In this document: one piece after another, positions 4,295 through 33,287 of the stretch
Position numbering within the stretch: position 1 is the stretch's first letter
Layout of the letters: the number at the start of each line of letters is the position of its first letter
Assembly: GCA_905478415.1 (NCBI GenBank)
Contig: CAJQIG010000004.1
Span: 203,523 to 267,522 of the forward strand
Length of the DNA: 64,000 nt
Direction: 5' to 3'
Origin: an uncultured Patescibacteria group bacterium
GTDB lineage: Bacteria > Patescibacteriota > Microgenomatia > UBA1400 > PJMF01
The notes under the pieces: model-generated
The model's input: the letters and a program-made list of their open reading frames with translations, nothing else
Told to the model about the DNA's origin: nothing
The model's database searches: none
Translations under genes and position numbers: made by a program

Positions 4295-4368
4295 GGTCGT
4301 ATAGCTCAGTTGGTTAGAGCGCGCCGTTCACATCGGCGAGGTCTCTGGTTCGAGTCCAGATACGACCA
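4295..4368 (+). tRNA. tRNA-Val (anticodon CAC)
   Basis: Cloverleaf folded by hand. Acceptor GGTCGTA/TACGACC (7 bp), D-arm GCTC-AGTTGGTTA-GAGC, anticodon stem CGCCG/CGGCG with loop TTCACAT, T-arm TCTGG-TTCGAGT-CCAGA, discriminator A. CCA is not encoded. Confidence 0.85.
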
Positions 4369-9783: not shown

Positions 9784-10202
9784 GGGGATGTACTGCTTTG
9801 ACGGAGTATGTTCATTAATATCTGCAGATCTTCTTTGACTAAGAAAGAAGTAAAACAGAGTCAAAACATAATTGCAAATAAAACTGCAAAAGGCATTTTA
9901 GATACTACCACTAATGCATTCGCATCAGTGTTCGGTACTAACTCTGCTCCTGCTTTCATCGCTGCATAAGCTTTGTAACAGGCGTGTATTCTTTTCATCT
10001 CATTGGCGTGAGGGAGTATGCGTAAACCCAGTCAATGTGACAAATAGTTTTCGTTCGTTGAAACTATCATAAGCAAATAGACGAAGATTGTGTCATGAAG
10101 GCTTGTTTGTTTTCCCTCTGACGCAACAACAAGGACAAACTACATCTGTAGATGATATTGGTGCTACTATTTCGGACGCGAGATCATTCCTCGCCATCTC
10201 CA
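9784..10202 (+). ncRNA. ssrA: tmRNA (ssrA), one-piece
   Basis: The 5' end reads GGGGATGTACTGCTTTGACGGAG (compare E. coli GGGGCUGAUUCUGGAUUCGACGGG). The 3' end reads ATTTCGGACGCGAGATCATTCCTCGCCATCTCCACA (compare E. coli AUUUCGGACGCGGGUUCAACUCCCGCCAGCUCCACCA). The 7-bp acceptor GGGGATG/CATCTCC has a G3:U70 alanine identity pair. The T-arm is GCGAG-ATCATTC-CTCGC. An internal open frame ends ...SAPAFIAA-TAA at 9967-9969, typical of a tag peptide. An intrinsic terminator follows. Confidence 0.85.
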
Positions 10203-10212
10203 CAACAATCAA

Positions 10213-10250
10213 AAGAAGAGTCTCGGGCAAGACTCTTCTTTATTTTTTTA
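10213..10250 (+). terminator. Rho-independent terminator of ssrA
   Basis: 11-bp perfect stem AAGAAGAGTCT / AGACTCTTCTT with loop CGGGCA, followed by TATTTTTTTA. Confidence 0.75.
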
Positions 10251-10367: not shown

Positions 10368-10396
10368 TTTACACGTTCACAAATTTAATAAATAAT
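10368..10396 (+). promoter_or_regulatory. Putative sigma70-like promoter for the surface-protein locus
   Basis: TTTACA (10368-10373), 17-nt spacer, AATAAT (10391-10396), about 11 nt before the ATG at 10408. Prediction from sequence only. Confidence 0.3.
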
Positions 10397-10407: not shown

Positions 10408-11436
10408 ATGTCTAATAGAAAACACTTACTACTAGCTGCTGTTTTGTTTGTGGCTTTTTTTGCCCTCTTTCCTAAAAATGCTCAAGCTGCACAACTTACC
10501 GAGGCCTATGTCAGACTTGATCGACTCAAAGCCTCAACCACAACTGGTGGAACGGTATGCGCAAAATTAACAACAACAGGTTCTACAGATACAACTATAA
10601 AAGTAAGCTTTCCTTCAGGTTTTACTGTCGACTCTACAGCTAGCAACTGGACTGTAACCACAACCAATTTGCCGGCAGGTGCCTCAGCCATGCCTGGTAT
10701 TAGCACCGCCTCTTTAGTTGCAAGTCAAGATGTTACTTTTCCAATAACTGACATCTCTTCTGGTGCAACGCTCTACTGTTTCAATTTTACCGGAACCAGT
10801 ACCTTAACAAATCCCACAGCCGGAAATGATAAAACTGGCACCATCACCGTACAGGCAAGTGGACCAACGGAGGTTGATTCTGGTAACTTTGCTCTTTCAA
10901 TTATTTCTGACGACCAGGTAGTTATTACGGCTACCGTTCCAGCTACCTTTAGTGTGGCCCTTGGCACAAACACCCAAGCACTTGGAACGCTGAGTACTGG
11001 TTCTGTTTCGTCTGGATCTGGAGTCTCTGTTACCATTGGCACGAATGCAGGTAATGGTTGGATTGGTTGGGTACTCAGTGCAAATCAAGCACTTGATTCA
11101 GCTACTACAGGTGACACTATCGCTACAACAGGAACTGTTGATGATACTCCAAGTAGTCTCTCTGCTGGTACAGAAGGCTATGTACTTGATGCCGACTTAA
11201 CTACTGATTCTGCAACTGGGGGATCTGGAACTGTAACCATTGATGCCGAGTACTTAGGTGCCGACACTTCTTCGGGAGGTGCGTTGAGTGCAACTTTCAC
11301 TGAGTTTGCTACTGCAAATGGACCAACTGATGGAGATGTCATTACCTTGATCCCTAGAGCTGCCATTTCGGGTCTGACACAAGCTGCCACAGATTATACC
11401 GATACCCTTACCATTGTTGCTGCTGGACACTTCTAG
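10408..11436 (+). CDS. Secreted surface protein, paralog family A (WxL-like?)
   Basis: Sec signal peptide (..FPKNAQA|AQ). The conserved N-domain (YVRLDRLKAS, NWTVTTTNLPAGASAMPG, VTFP, TNPTAG) is shared with 21288..24146. A mid IGWVL motif, the C-terminal motif DYTDTLTIVAAGHF, and a Thr/Gly/Ser-rich composition are shared with 14171..15223. Confidence 0.55.
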   Translation: MSNRKHLLLAAVLFVAFFALFPKNAQAAQLTEAYVRLDRLKASTTTGGTVCAKLTTTGSTDTTIKVSFPSGFTVDSTASNWTVTTTNLPAGASAMPGISTASLVASQDVTFPITDISSGATLYCFNFTGTSTLTNPTAGNDKTGTITVQASGPTEVDSGNFALSIISDDQVVITATVPATFSVALGTNTQALGTLSTGSVSSGSGVSVTIGTNAGNGWIGWVLSANQALDSATTGDTIATTGTVDDTPSSLSAGTEGYVLDADLTTDSATGGSGTVTIDAEYLGADTSSGGALSATFTEFATANGPTDGDVITLIPRAAISGLTQAATDYTDTLTIVAAGHF

Positions 11437-11494
11437 TCTCTTTCTTCTGTTTGTCGTTTACTCTTTTGGCATGGTACGATATATTGAGTAATAG

Positions 11495-12604
11495 ATGATC
11501 AAACGTATGTCTTTCAACTCCAAAAAACTTCTTTTATCTCTTCCTGTCCTGATTATCCTGATCTTTTCAGCCACAACTGTCCGAGCTCAGGAAACTTCAA
11601 CAGCTAGTGCTGAGACAGAAGCAGCTGCAACACCTCCACCAGCCGCCATTCAACCAATAGACTTAACCGTTTCGCCCATCACTCTCAACTTAGCTACTGA
11701 TCCTGGTAAGGAGGTAACTTCGGCCATTAAAGTGTTTAACAATAGCACTGAAAAAGAGTATTTAGAAATCAAGTTAGCTAAGTTCACCGCTGACAGGACT
11801 GGTTCGCGTCCTCAGATTAGAGACTTCGAAGCAAGTGACTCCTATCAAGACTGGCTGCAATTTGAACGGACAACATTCGAAGTGAACCCCGGCGAGTGGG
11901 AAACTATTAATCTTACATTTGCTCCACCTGCAGAGTCGGCTCTGGCTTACTACTATGCAATTATCGTCAAAAGACAAGTTGATACCACTGACGATGCCGC
12001 CACAACCATTGTCACTGGAGCACCTGCCATTTTAGTGCTCGCAAATATTTATTCGCCTAATGCTATTCAAGAGTTACAATTAGTAGATTTTTCTATGAAA
12101 AAAAAATTCTATGAATACTTGCCAGCCGAGTTCGAAATAGATATAAAAAATACAGGTAATATTCATCTCAGCCCACTTGGAAATATATTTATTGACAAAG
12201 GAGATGATAAAGATATTGCCTTACTCTCTATCAATAAAGAAAACGGATTAGTACTTCCTGACTCACAACGAACCTACACAGCAAAATGGACGGAAGGATT
12301 TCCTGTGTACGAACCAGTCATCGAAAATGGTATTGAAAAAAAAGATGAGAAGGGAGAGACAGTCTACAAACTTAACTGGGACCTCTCTAAAATTAATCAG
12401 TTCCGTTTTGGAAAATACACTGCTAACCTTTTATTAGTCTATGATAACGGTGTGCGAGACATTCCCATAGAATCAGTACTGACATTTTGGGTTTTTCCGT
12501 GGAAGATACTATTGGTAGCTCTGCTCCTCGTAGTCTTACTTTCACTGGGAGTGATGTATCCGCTACTTGCGCTCTATGGTAAAGTTAAGAAAAAAGAAAC
12601 ATAA
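11495..12604 (+). CDS. Surface-anchored protein with signal peptide and C-terminal TM anchor (DUF916/DUF3324-like)
   Basis: Signal peptide (..TTVRA|QE). The Ig-like region IDLTVSPITLNLATDPGKEVTSAIKVFNNSTEKEYLEI resembles the conserved core of DUF916 cell-surface proteins. The C-terminal TM is WKILLVALLLVVLLSLGV followed by KVKKKET. Confidence 0.45.
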   Translation: MIKRMSFNSKKLLLSLPVLIILIFSATTVRAQETSTASAETEAAATPPPAAIQPIDLTVSPITLNLATDPGKEVTSAIKVFNNSTEKEYLEIKLAKFTADRTGSRPQIRDFEASDSYQDWLQFERTTFEVNPGEWETINLTFAPPAESALAYYYAIIVKRQVDTTDDAATTIVTGAPAILVLANIYSPNAIQELQLVDFSMKKKFYEYLPAEFEIDIKNTGNIHLSPLGNIFIDKGDDKDIALLSINKENGLVLPDSQRTYTAKWTEGFPVYEPVIENGIEKKDEKGETVYKLNWDLSKINQFRFGKYTANLLLVYDNGVRDIPIESVLTFWVFPWKILLVALLLVVLLSLGVMYPLLALYGKVKKKET

Positions 12605-12610
12605 TTCTAC

Positions 12611-13546
12611 ATGGTATATCGCTTCTGGAATTTTTTTTTAGTAAGTAGCTTACTGTTATTTTTAACAGCAACTGCTCCAATGGCTTTTGCACAAGAAAAA
12701 AACAACTTTTCGCTGACTATTCAACCAGCATACCAAGAAGTTGAGATACCTGAAGATAAGAATAGTGTCGAAACAACGATAACTCTGAAAAATCCTTCTG
12801 ATACAGCCCAACAAATGGAACTATTCGCCTTTGATTTTACCCAAAGTGACCATTTTGGCTCAATTGCTTTGCTCGATGGATTCACCGGCCAGTATGCTCA
12901 TACTCTAGCTTCCTTTTTATCCTTTGAAAAAGACAGTCTCATCATTGCTGCTCAATCTGAAGAAGAAGTCGTCATTAAAATTGAAAATAGAGCTACGCTT
13001 TCTCCTGGAGGTCACTATGCTGCCATAGTAGTTCGAGCAATTGAAGAACAAGGTGCCTCGCAGCAAAAAATACTTCCAGCTGTAACATCGCTTTTGCTGG
13101 TCAGAAAAAAAAGTGGTGAACGTATTAATCTATCCCTAAAAGAACTTAGTTGGCAACCAAAAGCACTGGTAACTCACTTTCCAGAAAAAATTGACTTGAC
13201 TTTCGAGAATGGGGGAAATGTCCATGTTGTTCCAAGGGGCACCGCAGCTATTACAGACATTTTTGGCCGCGTCGTGTTTCAGGGAACAGTTAACGAATCA
13301 AGTTTGTACCTCTTACCAGGAACAATGAGAACAATTTCTACAAACTTACAACAGTCAAGAACTTTTTTTCCACTGATGTTTTATTCTTTAGAAATACATG
13401 GGAGATCAAATGTTGGTGAAGCTACTTTTTCTTCCGAAACTAGTTTTCTGTACGTTGACTGGAAATTTGTTGTGCTTTTGTTGATCATTGTGGGAGCCAT
13501 TATTTTCAGAACGGTACAAAAGAAGAAAAGAAATGAAAAAAAATAA
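12611..13546 (+). CDS. Second signal-peptide plus C-terminal-anchor surface protein (DUF916/DUF3324-like paralog)
   Basis: Signal peptide (..MAFA|QE). Contains SLTIQPAYQEVEIPEDKNSVETTITLKNPSDTAQQMEL, the same pattern as the previous gene. The C-terminal TM is FVVLLLIIVGAIIF followed by a KKKRNEKK tail. Confidence 0.45.
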   Translation: MVYRFWNFFLVSSLLLFLTATAPMAFAQEKNNFSLTIQPAYQEVEIPEDKNSVETTITLKNPSDTAQQMELFAFDFTQSDHFGSIALLDGFTGQYAHTLASFLSFEKDSLIIAAQSEEEVVIKIENRATLSPGGHYAAIVVRAIEEQGASQQKILPAVTSLLLVRKKSGERINLSLKELSWQPKALVTHFPEKIDLTFENGGNVHVVPRGTAAITDIFGRVVFQGTVNESSLYLLPGTMRTISTNLQQSRTFFPLMFYSLEIHGRSNVGEATFSSETSFLYVDWKFVVLLLIIVGAIIFRTVQKKKRNEKK

Positions 13547-14147
13547 CGTTCCCATCACCAGTATTCTGTTCATCAGTGCTGCTATTAGCATCAGCATTGG
13601 TATTTTTTGGTATCTAAGTGGAAACTCTGAGCAAAGAGTCACGGGCGGTCTTTCTGATAGAACCCGGGAGTTCTTAACGTCTCAAAAAGCCAATACTGAT
13701 TCTCTTTGGCCAGACTACACTTTCGAAGAAGGTACTGAACAAAAACAATACCAATCAGTTGAAACTAATTGTTTTACTCTCGAAATGCCCATTCCTGTCA
13801 GGAATCTGAAAACAAGTATCGAACAAGAAAGCTGTTTAGTAAAAGCTACAATTGATACTCCACATGCATTTTTAACTATTAGTTCAGAGCCTGCTCCCAG
13901 CATCCACTCTCTATCAGATCTCTCTGCTGTCAAACTACGCACAACTCAGCCAGATGTGTACACCCAAGAAAAAAGAGAAGAACTTGATAGCCCCAATAGT
14001 ATTGTTTTTTCTACTACCACAGAGGTCGTGTATTTTTACTTAGAAAATGAAACCATTACTACGGTTGCTCTGTATGACCTAGCTACCATTAATTCAGATA
14101 CGTACCAACTCTTAACCAAAGTAGTGAAGTCAGTTGGTATCCAGTAA
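13533..14147 (+). CDS. Membrane-anchored hypothetical protein (N-terminal TM)
   Basis: ATG at 13533 gives MKKNNVPITSILFISAAISISIGIFWYL (TM) followed by a soluble domain. It overlaps the previous gene's end by 14 nt. The track ORF starts at 13488, but that lies inside the upstream gene. Confidence 0.4.
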   Translation: MKKNNVPITSILFISAAISISIGIFWYLSGNSEQRVTGGLSDRTREFLTSQKANTDSLWPDYTFEEGTEQKQYQSVETNCFTLEMPIPVRNLKTSIEQESCLVKATIDTPHAFLTISSEPAPSIHSLSDLSAVKLRTTQPDVYTQEKREELDSPNSIVFSTTTEVVYFYLENETITTVALYDLATINSDTYQLLTKVVKSVGIQ

Positions 14148-14170
14148 AGAAATCTATATACTAAGAACGA

Positions 14171-15223
14171 ATGAAAAAACCAGTTATACTCATGAGCCTG
14201 ATGTTACTAGCCTTTCCGGCCAGCACTAACTATGCTCTAAAAAGTTTTGATTTTAATGCCGGTGGTGATAATTCCTTGAGTTCTTCAAGCTATGCCATGG
14301 AAGGTGCAGTGGGTGAACTAGGGAGCGATCCACTTTCTTCACTCAACTACACTACGCTTCCCGGACTCCTGTATACACAAATGGTGAACACACCATCAGC
14401 CCCAACTGTTACCAATGCTGGAGACTTCACAAATAAACTGTTAGTCACTATTGCTACTGAAGGCAACCCCTCTGACACTACCTATGCCATTGCTGTTTCT
14501 GATGATAACTTTGTCACCACAGAGTATCTGCAATCAGACAATACGGTGGGTGCTACACTCGGAGCTGAAGACTGGCAAACCTATGCCGATTGGGGCGGAG
14601 GTAGTGGAGAGTTTGCAGTTGGGTTAGTTCCTAACACAACCTATTACTTCAAAGTTAAAGCTGCCCAAGGAGAATTTACTGAAGGCCCCTGGGGTCCGGT
14701 AGCATCAGTAGCAACTTCAGCACTGAGTATTTCATTTGATATTGATGTATCTGCAACGGACCAAGAGACAGCAGCTCCATACGCTGTTGCACTAGGAGAT
14801 CTGCAATCGGGAACCATTGTCACCAGTACCGAAAAAATATGGGTTGACCTAGCTACAAATGCACCAGGAGGAGGCTTTGTGTATGTCTTTGGTTCCAATG
14901 GAGGTTTGTTGAGTCAAAAAACAAGTCATACTATTTCAGCCGTGTCAGGAAATTTAAGTAGCTTAGATGAAGGTTTTGGAATCCAATACAACAGCCTTTC
15001 AGAAAGTAGTGGCGGACCAATGGTGGTTTCATCTCCATATGACGGAGCGGGAGAAGTTGTCGGTACTATCACCACAAACCCACAAGAGATTTTCAATACC
15101 TCTGCCACTGCAATTGCTGGCGGAAGAGCTTCATTTGTGACCAAAGCTAAAATTGATGACTTAACTCCAGCTGCAGCTGACTACACTGACACCATTACTA
15201 TTATTTCGACTGCTAGTTTCTAA
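14171..15223 (+). CDS. Secreted surface protein, paralog family A (WxL-like?)
   Basis: Signal peptide MKKPVILMSLMLLAFPAS. The C-terminus AAADYTDTITIISTASF and the mid KIWVDLATN motif are shared with 10408..11436. Thr/Gly-rich. Confidence 0.5.
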   Translation: MKKPVILMSLMLLAFPASTNYALKSFDFNAGGDNSLSSSSYAMEGAVGELGSDPLSSLNYTTLPGLLYTQMVNTPSAPTVTNAGDFTNKLLVTIATEGNPSDTTYAIAVSDDNFVTTEYLQSDNTVGATLGAEDWQTYADWGGGSGEFAVGLVPNTTYYFKVKAAQGEFTEGPWGPVASVATSALSISFDIDVSATDQETAAPYAVALGDLQSGTIVTSTEKIWVDLATNAPGGGFVYVFGSNGGLLSQKTSHTISAVSGNLSSLDEGFGIQYNSLSESSGGPMVVSSPYDGAGEVVGTITTNPQEIFNTSATAIAGGRASFVTKAKIDDLTPAAADYTDTITIISTASF

Positions 15224-15927
15224 TGAACAAGCACCATTCTGGACCCTTTTTTTTTAGATCTTTGCACTTTCTTTTGATTGTAGGTCTTTTTTTTATCTTG
15301 GGACCTCTCTTTCAAGTTTCTGCTTCTTCAGTAGGACCAAAAACTTCACCAGTTTTAGCCGGAACTGTCAAAGTTACTGCTGAAGTAGCTGTTTCACCTC
15401 AACAAAAGTTTTTGATAGCAAAAAACTCATCTCTCATACTACAAAATCAGGGAATACGTGTTGGAAAACCCACTAAACTACACATTACCCTCAGGGGGTA
15501 CCAAAACCAACTCAAACCTTTTCAGGATTTTTCTATAAAAATTGTGGATGCTGATTTTGGTGTCCTTCAAAGCTACTTAGCAAAGACTGACCACACAGGT
15601 ACTGCCACACTTACTTTTATTCCAAATGCTCTCAGTCAGAGAGGTTCTTTTATACAAATTGATGTATTTAATGATAGATATACAACCACACAAGCTATTA
15701 CTTTCAGTACTCAGTATATACAGAACCTACCAAAACTACAAAATAGTTCAGAAAAATCCTTAGTTTTAAATCCTGATAATCGGGTTATATTCGTATTCTC
15801 TACCAGAGGTAAAACTGCTATGCTTACAAGAGGTAGTTATGTATTTTTTACAACCAAAAACACCAGCTCTAAAGGTAATCCGTATCTTTTTGCTGCTCGT
15901 GATGGCCCTTGGACTGTTACTACTTAA
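15223..15927 (+). CDS. Secreted hypothetical protein
   Basis: The start overlaps the upstream stop (TAATG). Hydrophobic signal region LHFLLIVGLFFILGPLFQVSASS. Confidence 0.4.
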   Translation: MNKHHSGPFFFRSLHFLLIVGLFFILGPLFQVSASSVGPKTSPVLAGTVKVTAEVAVSPQQKFLIAKNSSLILQNQGIRVGKPTKLHITLRGYQNQLKPFQDFSIKIVDADFGVLQSYLAKTDHTGTATLTFIPNALSQRGSFIQIDVFNDRYTTTQAITFSTQYIQNLPKLQNSSEKSLVLNPDNRVIFVFSTRGKTAMLTRGSYVFFTTKNTSSKGNPYLFAARDGPWTVTT

Positions 15928-17926
15928 GAACCAGGCAAAGGCGGCCACTGGTATTTACAAAACTATAAACTTCCAAGGAAAAGTCGTAAATAGTGATGGC
16001 ACCAACGTTGCGGATGGAGATTATGATTTTGTCTTTTCTCTCTACACCGTTGACACCGCCGGCTCAGCAGTCTGGACCGAATCACGTACTACCGTTAACC
16101 AAGTCACCGTCACAGACGGTGTTTTTCGTGTAGCTTTGGGTGAGGTAACTACCTTACCCGGATCAATTGACTTTAATACTGATAATATTTACTTGGGTAT
16201 CAACTTCAATAGTGATGGAGAAATGACTCCTCGAGTTCGCTTCACTGCTGTCCCCTATGCTTTTAATGCTCTCAAGGTTGCAGGACTTACTGTCACTGAT
16301 ACCACCGGAACATTAACTGTTCCAGATGCCAGCACCATTGCCTTTTCAGGTGCCTTCGACACCACCTTTACGACTACCAACACAACTACTGTCACCCTTC
16401 CAACTACAGGAACGCTGGCAACTTTGGCAGGAACAGAAACGTTTACCAATAAAACTATTGGTTCAACCGGACTCACCTTTTCTGGCGCAACGACTGACAT
16501 TACCACAGGAACAAATGAACATTTTGTTATCTCTCCGAATGGCACTGGGAATGTTGGAATTGGATCAACAACACCAACCCAATTCTTTGAGGTCCAAAAA
16601 GATACAAATGGATATGCAGCAATGTTAATTGATAACGAAACAAATGACACACTCGCTGCATCAGGATACTTCTTTGAAAACTCTACTAGAGGTGGTGGTT
16701 TTGGACTTTATTCTGATAACTTTACAGGGGGTGGAGGCTTAAGTCACTTGGCGGGTAGAATGGCTACGGCTGGATACAATGGGTTAGAACCACTTGGTAT
16801 AGATCTTATTGCAAACCATGCTAGTGGAGATATCCGATTGTTTACAGGCGGTATTGCAACTTCGAATGAGCGTATGCGAATTGACTCTGCTGGAAATGTG
16901 GGAATTGGTACCACCACAACGAGCAGCTACAAACTTGATGTAACTGGCACTATCCGAGCCACTGGCAGCGTCCTCAGCTCTGATATTGATGCAGATACAG
17001 CCGGGGCTCTTACGATCGGTAACACCACGGCCACTGCAGTCTCTATCTGTAACTCTGCCGCCTGCGACACAATTTCCATTGGCAATAATGCTGACGCAGA
17101 TACCATTACTATTGGTGACTCTCCAGATGGACTAACAATCAGTAGTTCTGGCTTCAACTTAACTTCTGGAGGAGCAATTTCTGGTATCTCTACTTTTGCA
17201 AGTAGCGGTGACTGGACTTGGTCAGCTACCACTCCAACCTTAACACTCAACTCGAGCGAGACCCTCACAATAACAGATGGCACTGATAGTTTTGTGGTTA
17301 ACACAGCCAGTTCATTATTCTCACTTTCTGACGGCAGCAACAGCTTTACCTTTGATGCTGACACTGGGCCTAACTACACTGGAACTGCACGACCAACAAA
17401 AAAGATTGTCATTTCGCCAGAATATGCTGGTGGGACTTTAACAACCTTCTATGGAGCTGGTACCGATGCTTCAATAACTGGAGTCATGACTGCCGATGCA
17501 GAAACTACCGCCACTGACAGCCTCCGCACCTACTATGAATGGAGTAGTTCTCAGGGCTCACTAAACTACTACACCGTCGTAGTCAGGATAACACTACCTG
17601 AAGATTTCAGTGCATGGGCCCCTTCTAACGCCCTACAAGTTGACTTCACCACTGAATCAACAAACTCAGCAAATAACTTACTTAGCGCCTATGTATATCT
17701 AAGTAGTGACTCAACAACCGCAGTAGCCTCAGACGTAAGTAATGCAGCTGCTGGAGCCGAAACTTGGGAACAAATCACTGTTGATGACAGTGTTCTAGAT
17801 GACGCTGCTGCTCCAGAGTGGGATGCTGCTGGAGAAACGGCGCTCATTTACCTCAGAATGGGATCAACTGGCAACAATTTTGCGAGAGTTGGCGACATCA
17901 CCTTAAATTATGTTGCCCGGTTCTAG
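15839..17926 (+). CDS. Large secreted Thr/Gly-rich fibrous protein (adhesin/fibre-like)
   Basis: 695 aa. The N-terminal signal-like region is KVIRIFLLLVMALGLLLLKNQAKA|ATG. About 25% Thr plus Gly, with repeated TTxT/GT motifs. The 5' end overlaps the upstream gene; an alternative start is 15902. Confidence 0.5.
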   Translation: MYFLQPKTPALKVIRIFLLLVMALGLLLLKNQAKAATGIYKTINFQGKVVNSDGTNVADGDYDFVFSLYTVDTAGSAVWTESRTTVNQVTVTDGVFRVALGEVTTLPGSIDFNTDNIYLGINFNSDGEMTPRVRFTAVPYAFNALKVAGLTVTDTTGTLTVPDASTIAFSGAFDTTFTTTNTTTVTLPTTGTLATLAGTETFTNKTIGSTGLTFSGATTDITTGTNEHFVISPNGTGNVGIGSTTPTQFFEVQKDTNGYAAMLIDNETNDTLAASGYFFENSTRGGGFGLYSDNFTGGGGLSHLAGRMATAGYNGLEPLGIDLIANHASGDIRLFTGGIATSNERMRIDSAGNVGIGTTTTSSYKLDVTGTIRATGSVLSSDIDADTAGALTIGNTTATAVSICNSAACDTISIGNNADADTITIGDSPDGLTISSSGFNLTSGGAISGISTFASSGDWTWSATTPTLTLNSSETLTITDGTDSFVVNTASSLFSLSDGSNSFTFDADTGPNYTGTARPTKKIVISPEYAGGTLTTFYGAGTDASITGVMTADAETTATDSLRTYYEWSSSQGSLNYYTVVVRITLPEDFSAWAPSNALQVDFTTESTNSANNLLSAYVYLSSDSTTAVASDVSNAAAGAETWEQITVDDSVLDDAAAPEWDAAGETALIYLRMGSTGNNFARVGDITLNYVARF

Positions 17927-17939
17927 CACAAAAGATACT

Positions 17940-20900
17940 ATGCTCAAGAAAAAAATATTATTCCAAATTTCAAGTGTATTCTTACTCTTGGCTATTCTCT
18001 TAGGATATGTGCTCTTCAAAGGCACTCAGCCAGTCTATGCAAACATCTTTCATTTTTGGTGGAACGAAAACATTACTGAAATTGTCATCCCCAAAGATAA
18101 TTTTGATACCGATGAAAAAATCATTATGCATGTTGATGGGGCAGATAAAAAAAACATCACTGTTGAAGTAAAAGACCCTGCTGGTCATAGCATTGAGATA
18201 GACACCCGACTTTCTAACTCTTCAGATGGCACTGTCGTCACACTACTTCCACCAGAAACAATAACTCCAGGAAAATATACTGTAGAAGTGAAAAATAAAA
18301 AAGGAACGGTATTGAATACTAGTTTCAGTTGGGGAGTACTTGCTATAAATGTCAACCAAGCTCACTACAGACCTAATGATGAAGCTCAACTTTCGTTTGC
18401 TGTCTTGGATGAAAAAGGTGACATGGTCTGTGACGCCGACCTTGAGCTACAAATCATTCAAAAGGCCACCGGAATTATAGACACACTAACAACAAAAGAT
18501 GGCGATATTACCACTAACCCAGAATGTGCTATATATGGCGTCACATATAACCCAGACTATGAAGCCACCTACACTGTTGGAACTCCGGGACAATACACAA
18601 TGGAGCTAACAGCCACAACCACAAATGGTACATACACCGTTACAGACTATTTTGAAGTTGCCGAAACCCTCGACTTTATAGTCGAACGACAAACAGCAAC
18701 TAGAATTTACCCTGTGGTCAGCTACCCCGTTGAAATACGTATTATTCCTAATAACGATTTTAAAGGACAAATTATTGAGACTGTACCCAATACCTTTACT
18801 ATCGAAAAAACAGAAACAGCTGCCCTACAACCAAATCTCATTACGGACAGCTCTTCTACTGAGAAACAACTACTTTGGAATGTAGACTTACAAAAAGGGG
18901 TTGAGTATACTCTGGCTTATACCTACGACGCACCTGACATCAGTCCAGAACTCTTCAGCATTGGCCCCCTGCAAATCCTTGATACTACTAGTGACAAAAT
19001 CTTTTCCGAAAAAAGAAAGTGGAAAATTGCTGTCGATGCCGTCGCCTTTGATGCAGTCACAACTGACAGCGCTAGTGTTGGAAGAAGTAGTGCGTCATTC
19101 TCACATACTACAACTGGATCAGATCGGCTGCTACTCGTTTTTGTCTCTCTCTTTCATGGTAACGCTACTCCAGATGTAACTTCAATTACCTATAATGGCG
19201 TCAGCATGACTCTGGAAACTGAACTAGAAGTTGTTTCAAGCCGCCATATTCGAACATTTGTGTACAGCCTTGTAAACCCAGCCTCAGGATCAAATACTGT
19301 TGCTGTCACCTATGCTCAGTCGACACAGGTTGCAGATGCGGTTATGGCAATCAGCTACACTGGGGTAGATCAAACAACACCAATTCCAACAACTGCAACA
19401 AACTCTTCAACATCAGCTGCTGACCCCACAATTGACATAACCACTACAACTGCCAACTCCCTCATTGTTGCAGGTGCTACAGTTCGTGGTGGTGACACCG
19501 CCCCATTTACTCCAGGTACCGGTAGTACTGAACGCTGGGACTTTGTCACCGATACTAATGCTAATGTTGACCTTGGAACCTGGGGAGGTGAAGAATCAGC
19601 AGCCACAACTGGTACGTATACTGTTGATGCCACGGCCACCAATTCAGACTTTTACTCCATGGTTGCAGTTGAGGTAGCAGAAGTGGCAGCAGCTGGAGGT
19701 ATTACGGTGTCTGGTAATGCCTATCAATCTGGAACCACGGCTTTAACCGACTGTGATGGGACCACTCAAAACATAGCACTCCGAGCTGGAAGTACTACCT
19801 ATACCACCACCTGTAATGCTTCAACTGGTGCATGGTCCATTGGTAGCGTAACGCAACCAAGCTCAGGTGACGGACTCGTTGTTTGGATTGATGGCGAAAC
19901 TACTGACGGAGCACTTGTCACCCGCTACGATGGCACAGGCGACTCAACTGGAAATATTTTTTATGCAAATGCGCTCACTTTTACAAGTGATGATAGTACC
20001 GCTGTTAACAACGCTGATGCAGACACCTATGACAATGCTGATGATGCTGATATCCCCTACACTGTCTCCACCAATGCTTTGACCCTTAATAGTGGCCATG
20101 AACTACTTGTCTACACAGGTAAAACCTACGACCCAAATGGAACTGTTACCACTAATGCAACCGGTGGTAATCTTCATGTTGATGATAGCTCCACCGCATA
20201 TCTCGACACTGCCACTTCAACTATTGGTGCTGATGTTATAGTTGATAACGGAGCAACACTTAATATTGATGCCACAACAAACATTTCTGGTGGAGATATC
20301 ACCTTAACTGGAACAGGCCTTGTTTCCACTACTACTGGGACTCCAACTACAACTATTTCTGGAGCAGGCACTATAGGCGGCGGCACTGGCTCACTCACCT
20401 TCTATAACCTTGCGCTTGCAGGGACCGGTACCACAACACTAAACGCACCACTCACTACTGCTAATAACCTCACGATTGGTGACGGCACCAATGCTCATAC
20501 GCTAGATGTAGAAACAAACGACAAGGCTGTCGACACCAATGGAGCATTCACTATTGCTGCCAATGGAACCTATACTGCCTCATCCACAACAGATGTAACT
20601 GTACAAGGAAACTTTACCAATGGGGGCATTCTTACTGAAGGAACAAGCACCATTGTCCTAGACGGATCTACCACAGCTAATCTTGATTCTGGTTGCAGCA
20701 CCGTATCCACATGTACAACCAACAACCTGTATAACCTTACCTTGAATAAGTCGACGTCAGGAACTACGGTAACGCTTCTCAACACAGGGCTGAGAGTTAG
20801 CAATACGCTTGAAATTACTACTGGAACTCTCAACCAATCAACCCTCGATGTGCAACTGGAGGGCAGCTCAGCGCTGGGAGTCACGAGCAACGGTACCTGG

Positions 20901-21254
20901 TCAAATACATCTACCGGCAACCTTACCTTAGGTGGATCTGTTTCAATTAATGGCACTATGACCCTTCAGGGTAATGGGGCCAGTTGTGGTGATACCGACA
21001 GTATTGTCATCAGCTCAACGTCTGGTGGAACACAACAGACCTGGAATGGAACTGGCACAACCACTATTAATGATGTGACCATCTCAGACCAGTCAGGAAC
21101 GATGTTGATCAATGCCCTCAGTTCAACTAATGCCGGTAATGTAAACACAAACTGGAGTATCTTCGGTGGCTGTAGTACTACTCCCGACCCCAACGAGCTC
21201 CTTCGCCATGGCGAATGGTTTTCTGGTGAGGTGAATCAAAAATTCAGTTTTTGA
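17940..21254 (+). CDS. Giant secreted beta-helix-like repeat protein (adhesin-like)
   Basis: About 1100 aa. Signal and TM region MLKKKILFQISSVFLLLAILLGYVLF. Long runs of T/N/G-rich short repeats (TLNxxTxxxGG, NGTxT) are reminiscent of parallel beta-helix adhesins. Confidence 0.5.
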   Translation: MLKKKILFQISSVFLLLAILLGYVLFKGTQPVYANIFHFWWNENITEIVIPKDNFDTDEKIIMHVDGADKKNITVEVKDPAGHSIEIDTRLSNSSDGTVVTLLPPETITPGKYTVEVKNKKGTVLNTSFSWGVLAINVNQAHYRPNDEAQLSFAVLDEKGDMVCDADLELQIIQKATGIIDTLTTKDGDITTNPECAIYGVTYNPDYEATYTVGTPGQYTMELTATTTNGTYTVTDYFEVAETLDFIVERQTATRIYPVVSYPVEIRIIPNNDFKGQIIETVPNTFTIEKTETAALQPNLITDSSSTEKQLLWNVDLQKGVEYTLAYTYDAPDISPELFSIGPLQILDTTSDKIFSEKRKWKIAVDAVAFDAVTTDSASVGRSSASFSHTTTGSDRLLLVFVSLFHGNATPDVTSITYNGVSMTLETELEVVSSRHIRTFVYSLVNPASGSNTVAVTYAQSTQVADAVMAISYTGVDQTTPIPTTATNSSTSAADPTIDITTTTANSLIVAGATVRGGDTAPFTPGTGSTERWDFVTDTNANVDLGTWGGEESAATTGTYTVDATATNSDFYSMVAVEVAEVAAAGGITVSGNAYQSGTTALTDCDGTTQNIALRAGSTTYTTTCNASTGAWSIGSVTQPSSGDGLVVWIDGETTDGALVTRYDGTGDSTGNIFYANALTFTSDDSTAVNNADADTYDNADDADIPYTVSTNALTLNSGHELLVYTGKTYDPNGTVTTNATGGNLHVDDSSTAYLDTATSTIGADVIVDNGATLNIDATTNISGGDITLTGTGLVSTTTGTPTTTISGAGTIGGGTGSLTFYNLALAGTGTTTLNAPLTTANNLTIGDGTNAHTLDVETNDKAVDTNGAFTIAANGTYTASSTTDVTVQGNFTNGGILTEGTSTIVLDGSTTANLDSGCSTVSTCTTNNLYNLTLNKSTSGTTVTLLNTGLRVSNTLEITTGTLNQSTLDVQLEGSSALGVTSNGTWSNTSTGNLTLGGSVSINGTMTLQGNGASCGDTDSIVISSTSGGTQQTWNGTGTTTINDVTISDQSGTMLINALSSTNAGNVNTNWSIFGGCSTTPDPNELLRHGEWFSGEVNQKFSF

Positions 21255-21287
21255 GGATAGTCGTTCATTCCTCTTTGGGAAATCATA

Positions 21288-24146
21288 CTATTTTCCCAAT
21301 AATCGGGGTGATGTAATGTATACCAACCAAACAAGTACATTGAAGGTTGAAAGTACTAAAAAAGGTACTACTCTATAAAAACCCAAGTTTGAGATAAAGA
21401 GTACTTGAAACAACAACGAACTAAAAATAGATAGCTCGAAAAACACTCCCAAAACATTCCTCGCCACTTGAAGTATCTTATGTCTTATTTTTTTAGGCAC
21501 CGATTCAGACTTAGTCAAAAAAACTGTTGAAGTTATCAACTTTTCACCAATGTACTCTAGATACTCTTCATTAGTAACATATTCTTTAGCCGTTACTAAA
21601 TAACGAACATCACGTGCTACCAAGTGAGCATGAAACAACCCCTTGCGATTACTTTCTGTTTGGTACAGAGCTTTTTGACCATTTTTTTCAAAGAAAACAA
21701 CTTGAGCTCTACTGACTGGTTGTTTTGTCTGTTCATCAATCACTTTGCCATGAATCAATAGCTTATTTTTTGTAAACGGATGCAGTATAAATAAGACATG
21801 AACTTTAAGATAACGAACTAACTTCTTTGGAGAAATGTGTGTGCGAGCAGACAACGCAAAAATACTTAAAAACCCAAACAGCAGTAATGAAAAAATTTCA
21901 ATAAGTGCATAAAAAGTATTTGATGTTGCATATAAATCAAGCTGAGTAGTCAGTGAACGGTACATATCTTCAAGCGTAGTAGCATGATAAGAGATAAGTG
22001 AAACCAATGTCTGTGGAGCAGGGTGGAGATACACTCTAGGAAATTGTTGAGAAGCATCTGGTCCCAAGACAAACTCAACTGTTTGGGTCTCATATCCAGA
22101 AGCGTCAACTACAATTCGGTACTTTTCATGTGGGAGCACTACTCTTACTCTTCCTTCGTGATCAGTAAACAAAGGATTTGAAGAAAGAAATGTCTGCGGA
22201 TTCATCAGTTCGTACCTATTATTTTTTTCGTTAAAGCGATAGATATGTATGCGAGCCCGTTCGACTGGCAGCTGATCATTTGCATTCACAATAGTCAACG
22301 GGGCTGAGACATATAAATGAGAAACTGGAAATTCGAGGATGTTCCCCAAACGATCAAATACTTGTAAATATGAATCATAGTAACCAGGAACTTGAGGAAA
22401 TTCAACTTGCCCAGAGTATACCCCTGCGGTTGTTTCAAATAACTTCGTTTTACTTACTACCGGTGAAGTATAGGTATCATTTCCTTCGGCACCTAAAATT
22501 TGACTATTCACTACCACATAGTACACATGCTCTATCAACTGATCCTCCTGAAAAGAAAAAAAGACTTCATAGGGAAACGATGTTGGTAGCGATGCTACCT
22601 GATGTACCTTCTGACCAACGGTAGAAAGCACAGACAAATTTTTACTCAGCATAGTAACAGTTGATATATCTAGCTGGGGAATATTTCCAATATCTGCTGT
22701 CTTAAAAGTAAAGATATCTGAAGTTGCTTCTGCTCCATCTTCACTGGTGGCACTGACTCGAAAGTAGTAGTGCCTGCTTGGATCTAGATCACTGAGATTG
22801 AATAAGTGAGACTGAGAAAACGTAGTATCCTCTACCATGTTTTGTAAACTTGAAACTGTCTTTCCATACAGTACCCGTACCCGTGTGCTGGTGTCTGTCG
22901 TCACAAAAAGTGTTGCCGCTGTATTCGAAAGTTTTTTAACTTCAATACTTGAAAATACTGGCGACACTACTGGCACAACAACTGTTTGATTTGCCTCTTC
23001 TTCAGTAGTTAAACATGCTGTATTTTTGGGGTTCTGCTCGTTGCGACACCGACCCGTGACGTTATAACAGTAACCCGTTCTACATTCTGAGTTCTCTGAA
23101 CACGACGTATTGCATGACTTTTTTGTGGCTCCAACAGTCGGCGATGGTGTTGGACTTGGAGTGGGATCAGGCGCGTGCATAAATGACTGAGAGACCGTTG
23201 TATCACTGGTTACGGCTGGACTTAGCACCCGCCCGGAAACTGAAAAAGTTATTGGCAGTTCGTGTGCATAACTCTGTGATGTCTGTAAACTGAAGGTAAC
23301 TGTTTGACCCGTTGTGGTAGCTGGGAAGTTGGGAATCGTCCATGTAATAGTTCTATTAACTGTATCGATAATAGGTGCTGTCGCCCCATACGCGTCACTA
23401 GCACTACCAGTGACATAGCTCAAGATATCTATACTAGGTGACCCTTGACCACTTATCGTCCCTTGACTCCACTCTGCTTGCAAAGTCAGTGGGGTTGACT
23501 GAAGTAAGTCGGACCCATACGTTATTTGATACTCTAGCACCTCATTTTGATCAAAAGTTGAACTAGCAGTCAGGGATGCTATGTCGGCAGTAAAGTAGTA
23601 TGAAAGGGCTGGCACTTCTCCAGATATAACTACTTGATCATTAGCAATGACTGGCACCATACTCTCTGAACTACTTGAAACACTTGCAGCCACTAAGGTA
23701 GCACTATTCCAAAGGTAGTTTTCGCCCGCTCCTGCCGATGGGTTGGTAAAAATTCCGCCCGTAATATAAAAACCATATTGAGTACCTGCCAAAATATCAG
23801 CACTTGGAAAGGTAACTACTTGACCAGAAACATTCGTTGCCGTTCCAACTCCCGGCCAAGCAGAAACTCCCGCAGGAAGGTTTGTCACTGAAGTAGTAAA
23901 ATTACTCGAGTTTGCACTCACAGACCAAGCCGGACCAACCGTTATCTGCACACCATCTTCTGATACGGTTTCACTGGTAGTAGCTACTACCAGTATTCGT
24001 CCCGGATTTTGCCCAGCCGCCGCTCGATCTAGACGAATATACGAAGAGTTTAACTCCAAAGCATAGGCTGGTGTTAAGACAAATGACAAAACTAAGACAC
24101 TAAACACACAACTTGCAATAATTTTTTTTCTAAGAATATTGAACAT
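21288..24146 (-). CDS. Chimeric polytopic surface protein: family-A N-domain, Cys-rich module, FN3/Ig-like, CarboxypepD_reg-like domains, and C-terminal TM helices
   Basis: Signal peptide MFNILRKKIIASCVFSVLVLSFVLTPAYA. The N-domain YIRLDR..NFTTSVTNLPAGVSAWPG..VTFP..TNPSAG is homologous to 10408..11436. The Cys-rich stretch is CNTSCSENSECRTGYCYNVTGRCRNEQNPKNTAC. Two carboxypeptidase-regulatory-like beta-sandwich segments (IHIYRFNEKNN..; IHGKVIDEQTKQPVSRAQVVFF..). Three predicted TM helices near the C-terminus. Confidence 0.5.
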   Translation of the reverse strand: MFNILRKKIIASCVFSVLVLSFVLTPAYALELNSSYIRLDRAAAGQNPGRILVVATTSETVSEDGVQITVGPAWSVSANSSNFTTSVTNLPAGVSAWPGVGTATNVSGQVVTFPSADILAGTQYGFYITGGIFTNPSAGAGENYLWNSATLVAASVSSSSESMVPVIANDQVVISGEVPALSYYFTADIASLTASSTFDQNEVLEYQITYGSDLLQSTPLTLQAEWSQGTISGQGSPSIDILSYVTGSASDAYGATAPIIDTVNRTITWTIPNFPATTTGQTVTFSLQTSQSYAHELPITFSVSGRVLSPAVTSDTTVSQSFMHAPDPTPSPTPSPTVGATKKSCNTSCSENSECRTGYCYNVTGRCRNEQNPKNTACLTTEEEANQTVVVPVVSPVFSSIEVKKLSNTAATLFVTTDTSTRVRVLYGKTVSSLQNMVEDTTFSQSHLFNLSDLDPSRHYYFRVSATSEDGAEATSDIFTFKTADIGNIPQLDISTVTMLSKNLSVLSTVGQKVHQVASLPTSFPYEVFFSFQEDQLIEHVYYVVVNSQILGAEGNDTYTSPVVSKTKLFETTAGVYSGQVEFPQVPGYYDSYLQVFDRLGNILEFPVSHLYVSAPLTIVNANDQLPVERARIHIYRFNEKNNRYELMNPQTFLSSNPLFTDHEGRVRVVLPHEKYRIVVDASGYETQTVEFVLGPDASQQFPRVYLHPAPQTLVSLISYHATTLEDMYRSLTTQLDLYATSNTFYALIEIFSLLLFGFLSIFALSARTHISPKKLVRYLKVHVLFILHPFTKNKLLIHGKVIDEQTKQPVSRAQVVFFEKNGQKALYQTESNRKGLFHAHLVARDVRYLVTAKEYVTNEEYLEYIGEKLITSTVFLTKSESVPKKIRHKILQVARNVLGVFFELSIFSSLLFQVLFISNLGFYRVVPFLVLSTFNVLVWLVYITSPRLLGK

Positions 24147-24297: not shown

Positions 24298-25017
24298 ATG
24301 AAACTCCTTTCTTTCCAAAAACCATCCAAATTCAAAGTGGCAACTGTCTTTCTTGTTTTTGCTCTAGTAGCTAGCTCAACATATTTCTATGTTCAGTATA
24401 AAAACGAGCAAGCTAGTAATCCGGCCCGAGAAGTGCAAGAAACTACCGCTGCCGTTTCTAAGTTTATGGAACTCCCACAAAATGAAGAACCTAGTTTAGC
24501 CACGGTAACAGAAAAAGAAAAACTACAAGATCAAGAATTCTTCAAACAAGCAGAAAATGGTGATAAAGTTCTCATCTATATTGATGCTGGTAAAGCTATT
24601 CTCTATAGACCTTCAACTGGAAAAATTATTGATGTCACTTCTATTAATACTAACCCGACAGCAACCACACTTACTCCCGAAAATCCAAAAGAAGTAGTGG
24701 AGAAACCAATTGAAACACCCGTCATAGAGAAAAAACTAACTATTACTTTACTAAATGGATCTGAAACAACTGGTATTACCAAGGCTATTGAAGACAAAAT
24801 TGTATCTTCACTCGAAAACTTCACGGTAGTAAGTCGACAATCAGCCGAGAAAACCACCTATCAAGAAACTCTAATTGTTGATATTACAGGTGGAAATAAA
24901 GAAGCAACTGAATCCCTTCAGGCCACCATAGGTGGTGAAATTGGGGCCCTCCCCAAAGGGGAAATCTTACCTGATTCTGACATACTGGTGATTGTTGGTA
25001 CTAATCCAGAACAATAA
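24298..25017 (+). CDS. LytR_C domain membrane protein (LytR/CpsA/Psr C-terminal domain only)
   Basis: N-terminal TM. The C-terminal LTITLLNGSETTGITKAIEDKIVSSLENFTVV...TLIVDITGG matches the LytR_C pattern. Divergently arranged to the 952-aa gene. Confidence 0.5.
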   Translation: MKLLSFQKPSKFKVATVFLVFALVASSTYFYVQYKNEQASNPAREVQETTAAVSKFMELPQNEEPSLATVTEKEKLQDQEFFKQAENGDKVLIYIDAGKAILYRPSTGKIIDVTSINTNPTATTLTPENPKEVVEKPIETPVIEKKLTITLLNGSETTGITKAIEDKIVSSLENFTVVSRQSAEKTTYQETLIVDITGGNKEATESLQATIGGEIGALPKGEILPDSDILVIVGTNPEQ

Positions 25018-25126: not shown

Positions 25127-26107
25127 TTATTTCTTTTTCTTTAACCAATTAAGTATGAACAAGAGTGGTACCCAAAGTACCGAGTACACAGCCACCCAGA
25201 TCAAGAAGGTAATTAAGAAGTATCCATGATACCCCAATGACTCTAAAGCTCTGGTCAGATGTTCTCGTATACTCAGCTCGCTATTAGGATCAAAGTAGCG
25301 TTTGCTATCTGAAGCAGAGATTGAGATGGTGGCATACTCCACCTGCGTCTCGATACTATCAACGCTTGCTCGATACTGCTTAAGTTGAGACTCATACATC
25401 TTTACCCTATTTTCAAGCTGAATAACTTCAGTTCGAAACTGACGCCACTGCACAGAACCAGACTCTGCCTTCTCAAGATTTGTTTGGGCTACTTCAAGGT
25501 CAGCTTGCGTTTCAGCTAGCATCACTTCGGTCTCACTGACTCTGTCACTGGCACGAACATGTGAACCAGTTACATCACTCGAATTGCTACTACTGTTGAA
25601 AATTTCTTTAACATTTTCAGTCACACGAGTACTGGCCTCACTGAATTTTTCGACCGGTACTTTTGCAAATAGATTTCCAGAGTTCCATCGCGAACCTTGT
25701 GAAAAGTTGTCATTTAATACTACGCCATCGACACTGAGAATATACTCGCGCATTGAGCGCATATACCCTTGGACATCGTCCACAATAACACTATAGTTTG
25801 CAGAACGATCATACAATCTATTTTCAACATCTAATCCCAAGTCATCTTGATAGTAATAGGGCATACTGGTACCGCCCATCATTGGTTCAGCTTGAATCGC
25901 AACCTTTGAGTTCGAAAATCCATCCACCATCGGCATCGATTCTACAACTGCTCCTCCTCCATCCCGAGAAGGCATTCCCATGAAGCTTTCATCATACTCA
26001 TTCATGAAGGAAACACCACTCCGCCTCATTTTTAAAAACGTGGTCGCAAGTGATAACACTAACACCAGCACTACACCAAAAAGTATCATCTTCTTGTTTT
26101 TGTGCAT
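25127..26107 (-). CDS. Membrane protein with central coiled coil (DUF4349-like)
   Basis: Start taken at MHKNKKMILFGVVLVLVLSLATT (TM). Long coiled-coil region and a C-terminal TM (LITFLIWVAVYSVLWVPLLFILNWL). Confidence 0.35.
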   Translation of the reverse strand: MHKNKKMILFGVVLVLVLSLATTFLKMRRSGVSFMNEYDESFMGMPSRDGGGAVVESMPMVDGFSNSKVAIQAEPMMGGTSMPYYYQDDLGLDVENRLYDRSANYSVIVDDVQGYMRSMREYILSVDGVVLNDNFSQGSRWNSGNLFAKVPVEKFSEASTRVTENVKEIFNSSSNSSDVTGSHVRASDRVSETEVMLAETQADLEVAQTNLEKAESGSVQWRQFRTEVIQLENRVKMYESQLKQYRASVDSIETQVEYATISISASDSKRYFDPNSELSIREHLTRALESLGYHGYFLITFLIWVAVYSVLWVPLLFILNWLKKKK

Positions 26108-26129
26108 ACAGGTCCTTTCTGCTAAATGT

Positions 26130-33277: not shown

Positions 33278-33287
33278 AGTTCTTTCA

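Follow-up and report, generated by a model that had tools for sequence, protein, structure and literature searches.

What is built by a run of nine consecutive genes whose products all carry an export signal and none of which encodes an enzyme? The question is raised by a 64-kb stretch of DNA (here called the window: 64,000 nucleotides of contig CAJQIG010000004.1) from an uncultured, ultrasmall Patescibacteria group bacterium, in which nine open reading frames (ORFs), P1–P9, span positions 10408–24146. A large fraction of bacterial diversity belongs to the Patescibacteria, or candidate phyla radiation (CPR), whose members spend their lives attached to other microbes, and little is known of the means by which they attach. 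The answer favoured here, with a probability of about 0.7, is that the locus encodes a thin, adhesive pilus of the Pam type, i.e. a CPR-specific, usher-less fibre formed by chaperone-assisted donor-strand exchange, together with accessory adhesins.

Pam pili, from Candidatus Mycosynbacter amalyticus, comprise the pilins PamA, PamB, PamE and PamT, the chaperones PamC and PamD, and the tether PamR, and are represented by the NCBIfam models NF058579 and NF058581 (bioRxiv 10.64898/2026.03.03.709456). The Pam proteins form filaments by cryo-EM, whereas the variant in the window is known from its genes alone. It would be related to, but diverged from, the pili that were first reported in 2026, and is regarded as a variant because its P1-type pilins escape the Pam models, its gene order differs, its PamT-like subunit P5 contains an FN3 domain, and P9 takes the place of PamR. 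An earlier, sequence-only reading of the same DNA had proposed a fibre or attachment system on the surface of a small-genome CPR bacterium, and this proposal is supported. Its description of the system as undescribed fails, as a system of this kind has been known since 2026 and the Pam pilus of Ca. M. amalyticus is its closest relative. The genes, all found at these coordinates, are as follows.

10408–11436, plus strand: P1 (342 aa), candidate major pilin; signal peptide, N-terminal beta-sandwich domain, conserved linker, and C-terminal acceptor domain ending DYTDTLTIVAAGHF
P1 residues about 164–180 (137–153 of the mature protein): the linker, a candidate donor strand, ISDDQVVITATVPAT
11495–12604, plus strand: P2 (369 aa), putative membrane-anchored PapD/WxLIP-like pilus chaperone, type 1; signal peptide, two beta-sandwich domains, C-terminal transmembrane (TM) helix, basic tail
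12611–13546, plus strand: P3 (311 aa), putative membrane-anchored chaperone, type 2
13533–14147, plus strand: P4 (204 aa), small N-anchored protein, a clade-specific accessory
14171–15223, plus strand: P5 (350 aa), candidate PamT-like tip or initiator subunit; signal peptide, conserved N-terminal segment, inserted FN3 domain, pilin C-terminal domain
15223–15927, plus strand: P6 (234 aa), secreted protein of this species only, called in same-species assemblies
15839–17926, plus strand: P7 (695 aa), predicted tail-fibre-like adhesin; conserved N-terminal domain (residues about 30–145), variable C-terminal part
17910–21254, plus strand: P8 (1114 aa), secreted or anchored Thr/Gly-rich protein; Ig-like (MG2) domains, phage-minor-tail-like region, probable beta-helical C-terminus
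21288–24146, minus strand: P9 (952 aa), candidate pilus terminator and membrane anchor; signal peptide, pilin N-domain, linker NDQVVISGEVPA, unrelated beta domains, Cys-rich module, FN3, CarboxypepD_reg, TM helix (747–765), CarboxypepD_reg, C-terminal TM hairpin

These nine genes are also predicted in three public assemblies of the species, including a 658-kb scaffold. That each product begins with a Sec signal or TM anchor, and that none is enzymatic, had been noted from the sequence, and both statements stand: a hydropathy scan finds an N-terminal hydrophobic 19-mer in all nine proteins, and searches of Pfam and NCBIfam find no enzymatic domain in any of them. The C-terminal TM helices of P2 and P3 are followed by the basic tails KVKKKET and KKKRNEKK, respectively, and P9 has three further TM segments by the same scan, one at 747–765 and the others at about 898–944. 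The only above-threshold match to either database among P1–P9 is CarboxypepD_reg in P9 (Pfam, 1.6e-11).

Pilin-type subunits, a candidate anchor and putative chaperones

The candidate major pilin, P1, has more than 1271 homologues, all of them unannotated and, wherever named, from Patescibacteria, with at least 58% identity among the best 120. Its AlphaFold2 model (pLDDT 87.8) consists of two all-beta domains, the fold matches of which are generic beta-sandwiches, separated by a linker that takes the form of a low-confidence coil. Although modelled as coil, the linker is nearly invariant across relatives, and as it is conserved, carries alternating hydrophobic residues and has no partner within the monomer, we infer that it is donor-strand-like. 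Across 50 diverse relatives, the C-terminal strand DYTDTLTIV scores highest for conservation (0.92), ahead of WVxSAN (0.83), the first strand of the C-terminal domain (0.81), the linker (0.73) and the N-domain (0.57–0.68). The C-terminal Y-T-x-T motif picked out beforehand is real, lying in the most conserved stretch of the family.

P1 and P5 had been taken for paralogues, which is true of the C-terminal domain only (30% identity over 153 aa, E 3e-9; 99.4% and E 3e-21 when the family profiles are compared with hhalign). The N-domain and linker of P1 match P9 instead, and P5 is without the DDQVVI half of the linker. When the PDB was searched by sequence, with P1, P5, P7 and P8 singly and with the P1, P2 and P5 family profiles, nothing was returned but FN3 for P5.

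It is through P5 that the locus is tied to the Pam models. P5 itself matches NF058579 (PamT) at E 1e-4 with 21.7 bits, not reaching the cut-off of 240 bits. An exhaustive search with P5 yielded 611 representatives, and 64 full-length members were compared with the Pam models: 25 of these match PamT (best 4.6e-11), the region matched being the N-terminal ~90 residues, and seven match NF058581, CPR_Pam_pilin_C (best 1.2e-10), through their last ~145 residues, so that the two models fall on separate regions of the proteins. Together, these matches identify P5, on sequence grounds, as a PamT homologue with an FN3 insertion, rather than an equivalog. In five longer proteins of 584–1300 aa (P0242, P0243, P0261, P0271 and P0275), the PamT-like P5 module forms the C-terminal ~335 residues; such proteins may be tip subunits to which large adhesin domains have been fused.

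P9 shares with P1 a signal peptide, N-domain and linker only. The two align by BLASTP with 35% identity over 179 aa (E 9e-21), and the family profiles with an hhalign probability of 100% (E 3.6e-40), the alignment stopping past the linker, at P1 residue 186. The architecture of P9 is conserved in a family of 121 proteins of about 900–950 aa, and in the locus of a relative (L008) with a P1 homologue of 73% identity, the P9 homologue again lies convergent to the operon, beside a homologue of P10, the gene that follows P9 in the window. P9 is accordingly described as a candidate pilus terminator and membrane anchor, a hypothesis that goes beyond the Pam preprint, in which that role is proposed for PamR (bioRxiv 10.64898/2026.03.03.709456).

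The model of P2 (AlphaFold2, pLDDT 88.5) has a disordered loop between two long strands of domain 1. Foldseek matches it to the pilus chaperones CsuC, CfaA, Caf1M and YadV, and to WxLIP of E. faecium, at E values of 1e-10 to 1e-7. Target TM scores are 0.49–0.62 against the pilus chaperones, and 0.42–0.47 against the WxLIP structures 9i25_C (from an entry whose description reads ‘bound to long WxL’) and 9i1y (E 6e-10 to 7e-9). P2 itself has no Pfam match, and 14 of the 55 members of its family match PF06030, WxLIP_PGBD (DUF916), the best at 1.6e-6; PF11797 (DUF3324) appears solely as a faint match in P8. P3, a putative chaperone by sequence, is a paralogue of P2 (23% identity over 260 aa, E 3e-8), and is present in 38 of the 41 loci discussed below. 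The two PapD/FimC-like chaperones with C-terminal TM helices that characterise Pam are thus represented here by P2, through its fold, and by P3, through paralogy. In one related locus (L007, 11150–14236), two tandem near-identical P2-like genes, and apparent fragments of a third copy, lie ahead of the P3-like gene.

As P2 and P3 resemble WxLIP as much as they resemble the chaperones of chaperone-usher systems, a non-filamentous surface complex like that of the Firmicute WxL/Csc clusters is a serious alternative, if an unlikely one. P2 and P3 would then bind single P1 or P5 molecules by strand insertion and hold them as adhesins, with no polymer being formed. Their architecture, with a signal peptide, two Ig-like domains and a TM helix, is that of WxLIP, the PF06030 matches and the 9i25/9i1y structures point the same way, and the gene ratio, one or two WxLIP-like proteins to two C-domain proteins, resembles that of the common WxL cluster. 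This parallel, first drawn in the sequence-only reading, holds for P2 and P3 but not for P1 and P5. The WxL profile, PF13731, has no match in P1–P9 (E ≤ 1), or in 114 members of the P1 and P5 families (50 P1-type and 64 P5-type; E ≤ 0.05), and the single W-V-L of P1 is W-V-K in most of its family. Furthermore, P1 contains an N-domain in addition, along with a conserved linker, and as both recur in P9, a polymer with a terminator fits better than a 1:1 complex. The P5 family also matches models of the Pam pilus, the proteins of which form filaments, and the chaperones of chaperone-usher systems match P2 as well as WxLIP does, or better (target TM score 0.51–0.62).

The gene content and export signals, the homologies between P1, P5 and P9, the chaperone-like fold of P2, the profile links of the P5 family and the conservation of the cassette described below are observations. 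Under the favoured reading of a Pam-type pilus, we infer filament formation, donor-strand exchange, an order of assembly and roles for P9, P7 and P8, as follows. All components would be exported by Sec, after which the membrane-anchored P2 and P3 would hold new subunits by completing the incomplete Ig-like domain at the C-terminus of each. P5, having an acceptor domain and no full donor linker, would start the fibre at its distal tip. P1 subunits would then add in series, the linker of each (V-x-I-x-A-x-V) entering the C-terminal domain of the subunit before it. P9, with an N-domain and linker, no acceptor, and a fixed position in the membrane, would both stop growth and tether the fibre; PapH plays an analogous terminating role in P pili. 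P7, with its conserved N-domain and variable C-terminus, and P8 would serve as fibre-like adhesins, probably for host recognition. The P9 family would in this way suggest, in concrete and testable form, how the growth of an usher-less pilus ends and how the fibre is attached to a single membrane.

The four secreted, unanchored proteins, P1, P5, P7 and P8, all terminate in Phe (…AAGHF, …STASF, …YVARF and …KFSF, respectively). The terminal aromatic residue is invariant across the P1 family, as F, or as Y in the Saccharibacteria copies, and is not conserved in the Saccharibacteria P7 orthologue. It may be a feature recognised by the chaperones.

A five-gene cassette across CPR classes

A scan of one genome per species gave 150 pilin loci; 78 were retained, and 41 had enough flanking sequence to be judged. 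The loci are spread over Saccharimonadales, Moraniibacteriota, Berkelbacteria, Paceibacteria and unclassified Patescibacteria. A five-gene cassette, consisting of P5, P1, P2, P3 and the P7 N-domain, is complete in 36 of the 41, with the order P5-P1-P2-P3-P7 in thirty loci and the order of the window in five; P4, P6 and P8 are clade- or species-specific. The synteny in related genomes for which a check had been suggested is thus present. The earlier judgement that the sequences are too diverged to form an orthologous cluster is right in relation to Csc, and does not apply within the CPR, where orthologues are clear.

One Saccharibacteria locus (L004), found through a P2 homologue of 40% identity, is orthologous gene for gene. 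Identities are 35% for P5, 34–35% for two copies of P1, 40% for P2, 30% for P3 (S317c) and 32% for the P7 N-domain, and a P10-like gene is also present. This locus adjoins a major facilitator superfamily (MFS) transporter, and an MFS transporter is likewise reported as a neighbour in M. amalyticus and organisms closely related to it (bioRxiv 10.64898/2026.03.03.709456). Its two tandem pilin genes are 59% identical to each other, and another Saccharibacteria contig (JAQBRY010000004.1) carries two P1-type pilin loci (L015 and L026) ~12.7 kb apart; pilin multiplicity therefore differs between lineages.

Named homologues are mostly from the CPR, and several labels of metagenome-assembled genomes (MAGs) appear to be wrong. 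Many species-representative MAGs with the cassette, those of L035, L037, L038, L042, L050, L054 and L077 among others, are titled ‘uncultured Bdellovibrionales’, ‘Pseudomonadales’ or ‘Gammaproteobacteria’, and one such implausibly titled MAG (CAZKVV010000003.1) has a P1 that is 76% identical to that of the window.

The cassette bears on a further explanation, that the secreted proteins are adhesins with no relation to one another, or form an S-layer-like coat; P1 would then be an abundant lattice or coat protein and its neighbours would act independently. The strong conservation of P1 among its top 120 homologues would suit any abundant structural protein, every product of the locus is exported, and the fold matches of P1 are no more specific than generic beta-sandwiches. 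That five genes keep a fixed order in several CPR classes, however, points to a single machine, and the sharing of domains between P1 and P9 (N-domain and linker) and between P1 and P5 (C-domain) would be unexpected for independent adhesins. The chaperone fold of P2 and P3 and the matches of the P5 family to Pam models also count against this explanation. No SLH or S-layer domain is found in the locus by Pfam or NCBIfam, the S-layer-like reading offered earlier has no support, and the explanation as a whole is improbable.

If the cassette does build pili, Pam-type pili are not peculiar to Saccharimonadia, and represent a conserved five-gene machine in several CPR classes, the main subunit of which is overlooked by current annotation models.

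Fibre-like proteins, accessory genes and flanking features

P7 matches the NCBIfam model Bdello_MAT_N at E 5.8e-8 with 32.7 bits, below the curated cut-off of 60, and its N-domain is present in 39 of the 41 loci, directly after the chaperones. The Saccharibacteria orthologue, S1214, carries GTA_spike_fiber and Peptidase_S74. The start of P7 at 15839, which gives 695 aa and an overlap of 89 nt with P6, is favoured here, as AAGAGG provides it with a good Shine-Dalgarno sequence and the signal peptide that results is better; public gene calls place the start at the equivalent of 15902 (674 aa).

P8 has a sub-threshold match to Pfam MG2 (5e-6), and its residues 355–599 match PHROG families of minor tail proteins (4e-12 and 1.7e-8). 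A P8 homologue is found in only one of the 41 loci, and P8 is predicted to be a lineage-specific accessory adhesin; the equivalent large protein of L008 carries DUF2341 instead. P7 and P8 had been described as giant Thr/Gly-rich repeat proteins. They are rich in Thr and Gly, but contain no tandem or internal repeats, and their classification as repeat proteins was abandoned. Both are probably host-binding fibres, and the variable C-termini of P7 are candidate determinants of host range.

The phage-like features of these two proteins are the basis for a last explanation, a degraded prophage or tail-fibre module. In its favour are the match of P7 to a chimeric fibre N-domain, the domains of S1214, and the minor-tail region of P8. 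The locus contains no other phage gene, however, its base composition matches that of the remainder of the window, and the cassette is chromosomal and kept in many CPR species. A relative of the pilin is, moreover, absent from 2.9 million IMG/VR contigs. Context, composition and the lack of pilin relatives on viral contigs lead to the rejection of a prophage origin, the chance of which is put at next to nothing.

P4 occurs only in close relatives (L008, at 29% identity, L054 and L077), and has no matches to families in Pfam, NCBIfam or PHROG. P6 has no homologue in any related locus, and no family or profile match by Pfam, NCBIfam, PHROG or hhalign. The possibility that P4 and P6 are hidden pilins or chaperones was discarded, as hhalign detects no profile similarity. 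P10 has homologues after the cassette in 18 of the 41 loci (34% identity to S159 of Saccharibacteria, and 41% in L008, where it adjoins the P9 homologue), and its relatives have weak Pfam LytR_C matches; it probably belongs to the locus. The position of P10 and of other features around the nine genes is given below.

4295–4368: tRNA
9784–10205: transfer-messenger RNA (tmRNA; Rfam, 95.7 bits), directly upstream of the locus
10212–10241: terminator-like hairpin of the tmRNA, 12–13 bp
10368–10396, plus strand: promoter-like site TTTACA-17-AATAAT, with 10 of 12 consensus matches, downstream of the tmRNA terminator hairpin
24298–25017, plus strand: P10, N-anchored, beyond the coordinates of the sequence-only reading
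32756–33298, minus strand: LPQTG protein of 180 aa, a sortase-type substrate; signal peptide, LPQTG, TM segment, short tail

With the tmRNA gene and its terminator hairpin upstream, the locus begins a new unit. The overlaps of starts with stops at 13533, 15223 and 15839 are as described previously, and the 17-nt overlap of P7 and P8 adds a fourth. The promoter proposed to drive the operon, TTTACA-17-AATAAT, exists as a site. Promoter-like sites are in no excess in the region, at 24 against a shuffled expectation of 28.7, which makes this one indistinguishable from chance, and its -10 element ends just 11 nt ahead of the P1 ATG. A match to the consensus being all that speaks for it, it was not retained as a functional promoter. 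The small LPXTG protein, which had been linked to the locus, is real, but ~9 kb and several genes separate it from the locus, and it is on the opposite strand and outside the cassette. Also on the minus strand, a DUF4349 ORF (25127–26227), when taken from its longest start, overlaps the end of an FtsK ORF (26130–28304) by ~98 nt, and its true start is probably the internal MHKNKK.

Relation to known systems

With the mosaic adhesive trimer (MAT) fibres of Bdellovibrio, the locus shares the MAT N-terminal domain of P7 and its orthologues, in which a conserved N-terminus is likewise followed by a highly variable C-terminal part, and with phage tail fibres it shares the Peptidase_S74 module in which the Saccharibacteria P7 orthologue ends. 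It differs from both in that the match of P7 is below the cut-off, and in its context, the pilus operon of an epibiont rather than a predator or phage.

The chaperone-usher systems, above all the archaic (Csu) and class 5/alternate (CFA/I) ones, offer a further comparison. The fold of P2 is like that of CsuC, CfaA, Caf1M and YadV, and the subunits are proposed here to have the same incomplete Ig-like acceptor domain and conserved C-terminal strand, and to follow the same logic of tip subunit, major subunit and terminator. CPR bacteria are generally regarded as monoderm, and, unlike the chaperone-usher systems, the system of the window has no outer membrane to cross and no usher, an usher domain being absent from every protein of the locus by Pfam and NCBIfam. 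Its chaperones are TM-anchored rather than soluble, its proposed donor strand is an internal linker between domains rather than an N-terminal extension, and there is no sequence similarity.

The closest likeness is to Pam itself. The Pam system is restricted to the CPR and has no usher, its two-domain pilins donate a linker strand, and its tip pilin, PamT, has a single domain; its two chaperones are PapD/FimC-like and retain a TM helix at the C-terminus, and a tail-fibre-like gene is co-localised (bioRxiv 10.64898/2026.03.03.709456). The locus agrees in that its named homologues are mostly from the CPR, and in Sec export of every part, a PamT-like subunit, the lack of an usher, two PapD-like chaperones with C-terminal TM helices and a tail-fibre-like gene, P7, alongside. 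Its pilin has the same layout, with the linker between an N-terminal beta-sandwich and a C-terminal domain; PamA and PamB are most conserved in the linker and C-terminal domain (bioRxiv 10.64898/2026.03.03.709456), and these show top conservation in P1 too. Both systems also have a membrane-tethered component with a strand that could cap the fibre.

Several points weigh against the assignment to Pam. The comparison rests on the NCBIfam models and the published description of the M. amalyticus proteins, and no protein of the window reaches a curated Pam cut-off. P1 has no match to the pilin model NF058581 at E ≤ 1 (cut-off 55 bits), nor do any of 50 diverse P1-type pilins, Saccharimonadales included, match it at E 0.1, for which reason the link of P1 to PamA and PamB is indirect, through the C-terminal domain of P5. 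None of the 55 P2-family chaperones matches any Pam model, and the same is true of the orthologous Saccharibacteria locus. The gene order is unlike that of M. amalyticus, being P1-P2-P3-P4-P5-P6-P7 in the window and P5-P1-P2-P3-P7 in most lineages, as against PamC-B-R-D-E-A-T. The Pam neighbourhood includes an ATP synthase, and PamR is an RbmA-like protein of 33 kDa with two FnIII domains, an N-terminal strand and a C-terminal TM helix (bioRxiv 10.64898/2026.03.03.709456). No ATP-synthase signature motif is found in the 64-kb window, and no RbmA-like PamR among the nine proteins by Pfam or NCBIfam; the candidate anchor is instead the 952-aa polytopic P9, with a whole pilin N-domain. The locus differs further in having one major pilin type, in place of PamA, PamB and PamE, and in the FN3 insertion of P5. 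Within the published record itself, Supplementary Table 1 of the preprint labels QHN42421.1 (119 kDa) as pamC, while its text has PamC as a FimC/PapD-like chaperone of the pam operon (bioRxiv 10.64898/2026.03.03.709456); this is probably a labelling slip, since QHN43268.1 (36.5 kDa, adjoining pamB) fits better.

The Firmicute WxL/Csc clusters are also monoderm systems in which every part is secreted, and their WxLIP proteins share with P2 and P3 a signal peptide, two Ig-like domains and a TM helix, with PF06030 a weak and recurrent match in the P2 family. A strand of WxLIP is predicted to enter the WxL partner, typical clusters having one WxLIP and two partners, and both proteins are proposed to bind peptidoglycan (PMC10599100), the last being a difference from the locus. 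Other differences are that P1 and P5 have no WxL domain or dual WxL motif, that the cluster has no LPXTG CscD, and that WxL proteins are not known to polymerise. The link between the chaperones and Firmicute WxLIP goes beyond the Pam preprint, which does not mention WxL, and its basis in both sequence and fold suggests a common origin of the WxL/Csc clusters and CPR pili. A combined proposal, more tentative than the assignment to Pam and possible rather than probable, may be drawn from these comparisons. The locus would be a variant undetected by the Pam models, belonging together with Firmicute WxL/WxLIP to an ancient, monoderm and usher-less family of anchored chaperones, in which strand complementation either holds adhesins or builds pili, and P9 would represent a new class of terminator, polytopic and with a complete pilin N-domain and donor strand, that caps and anchors the fibre in one step.

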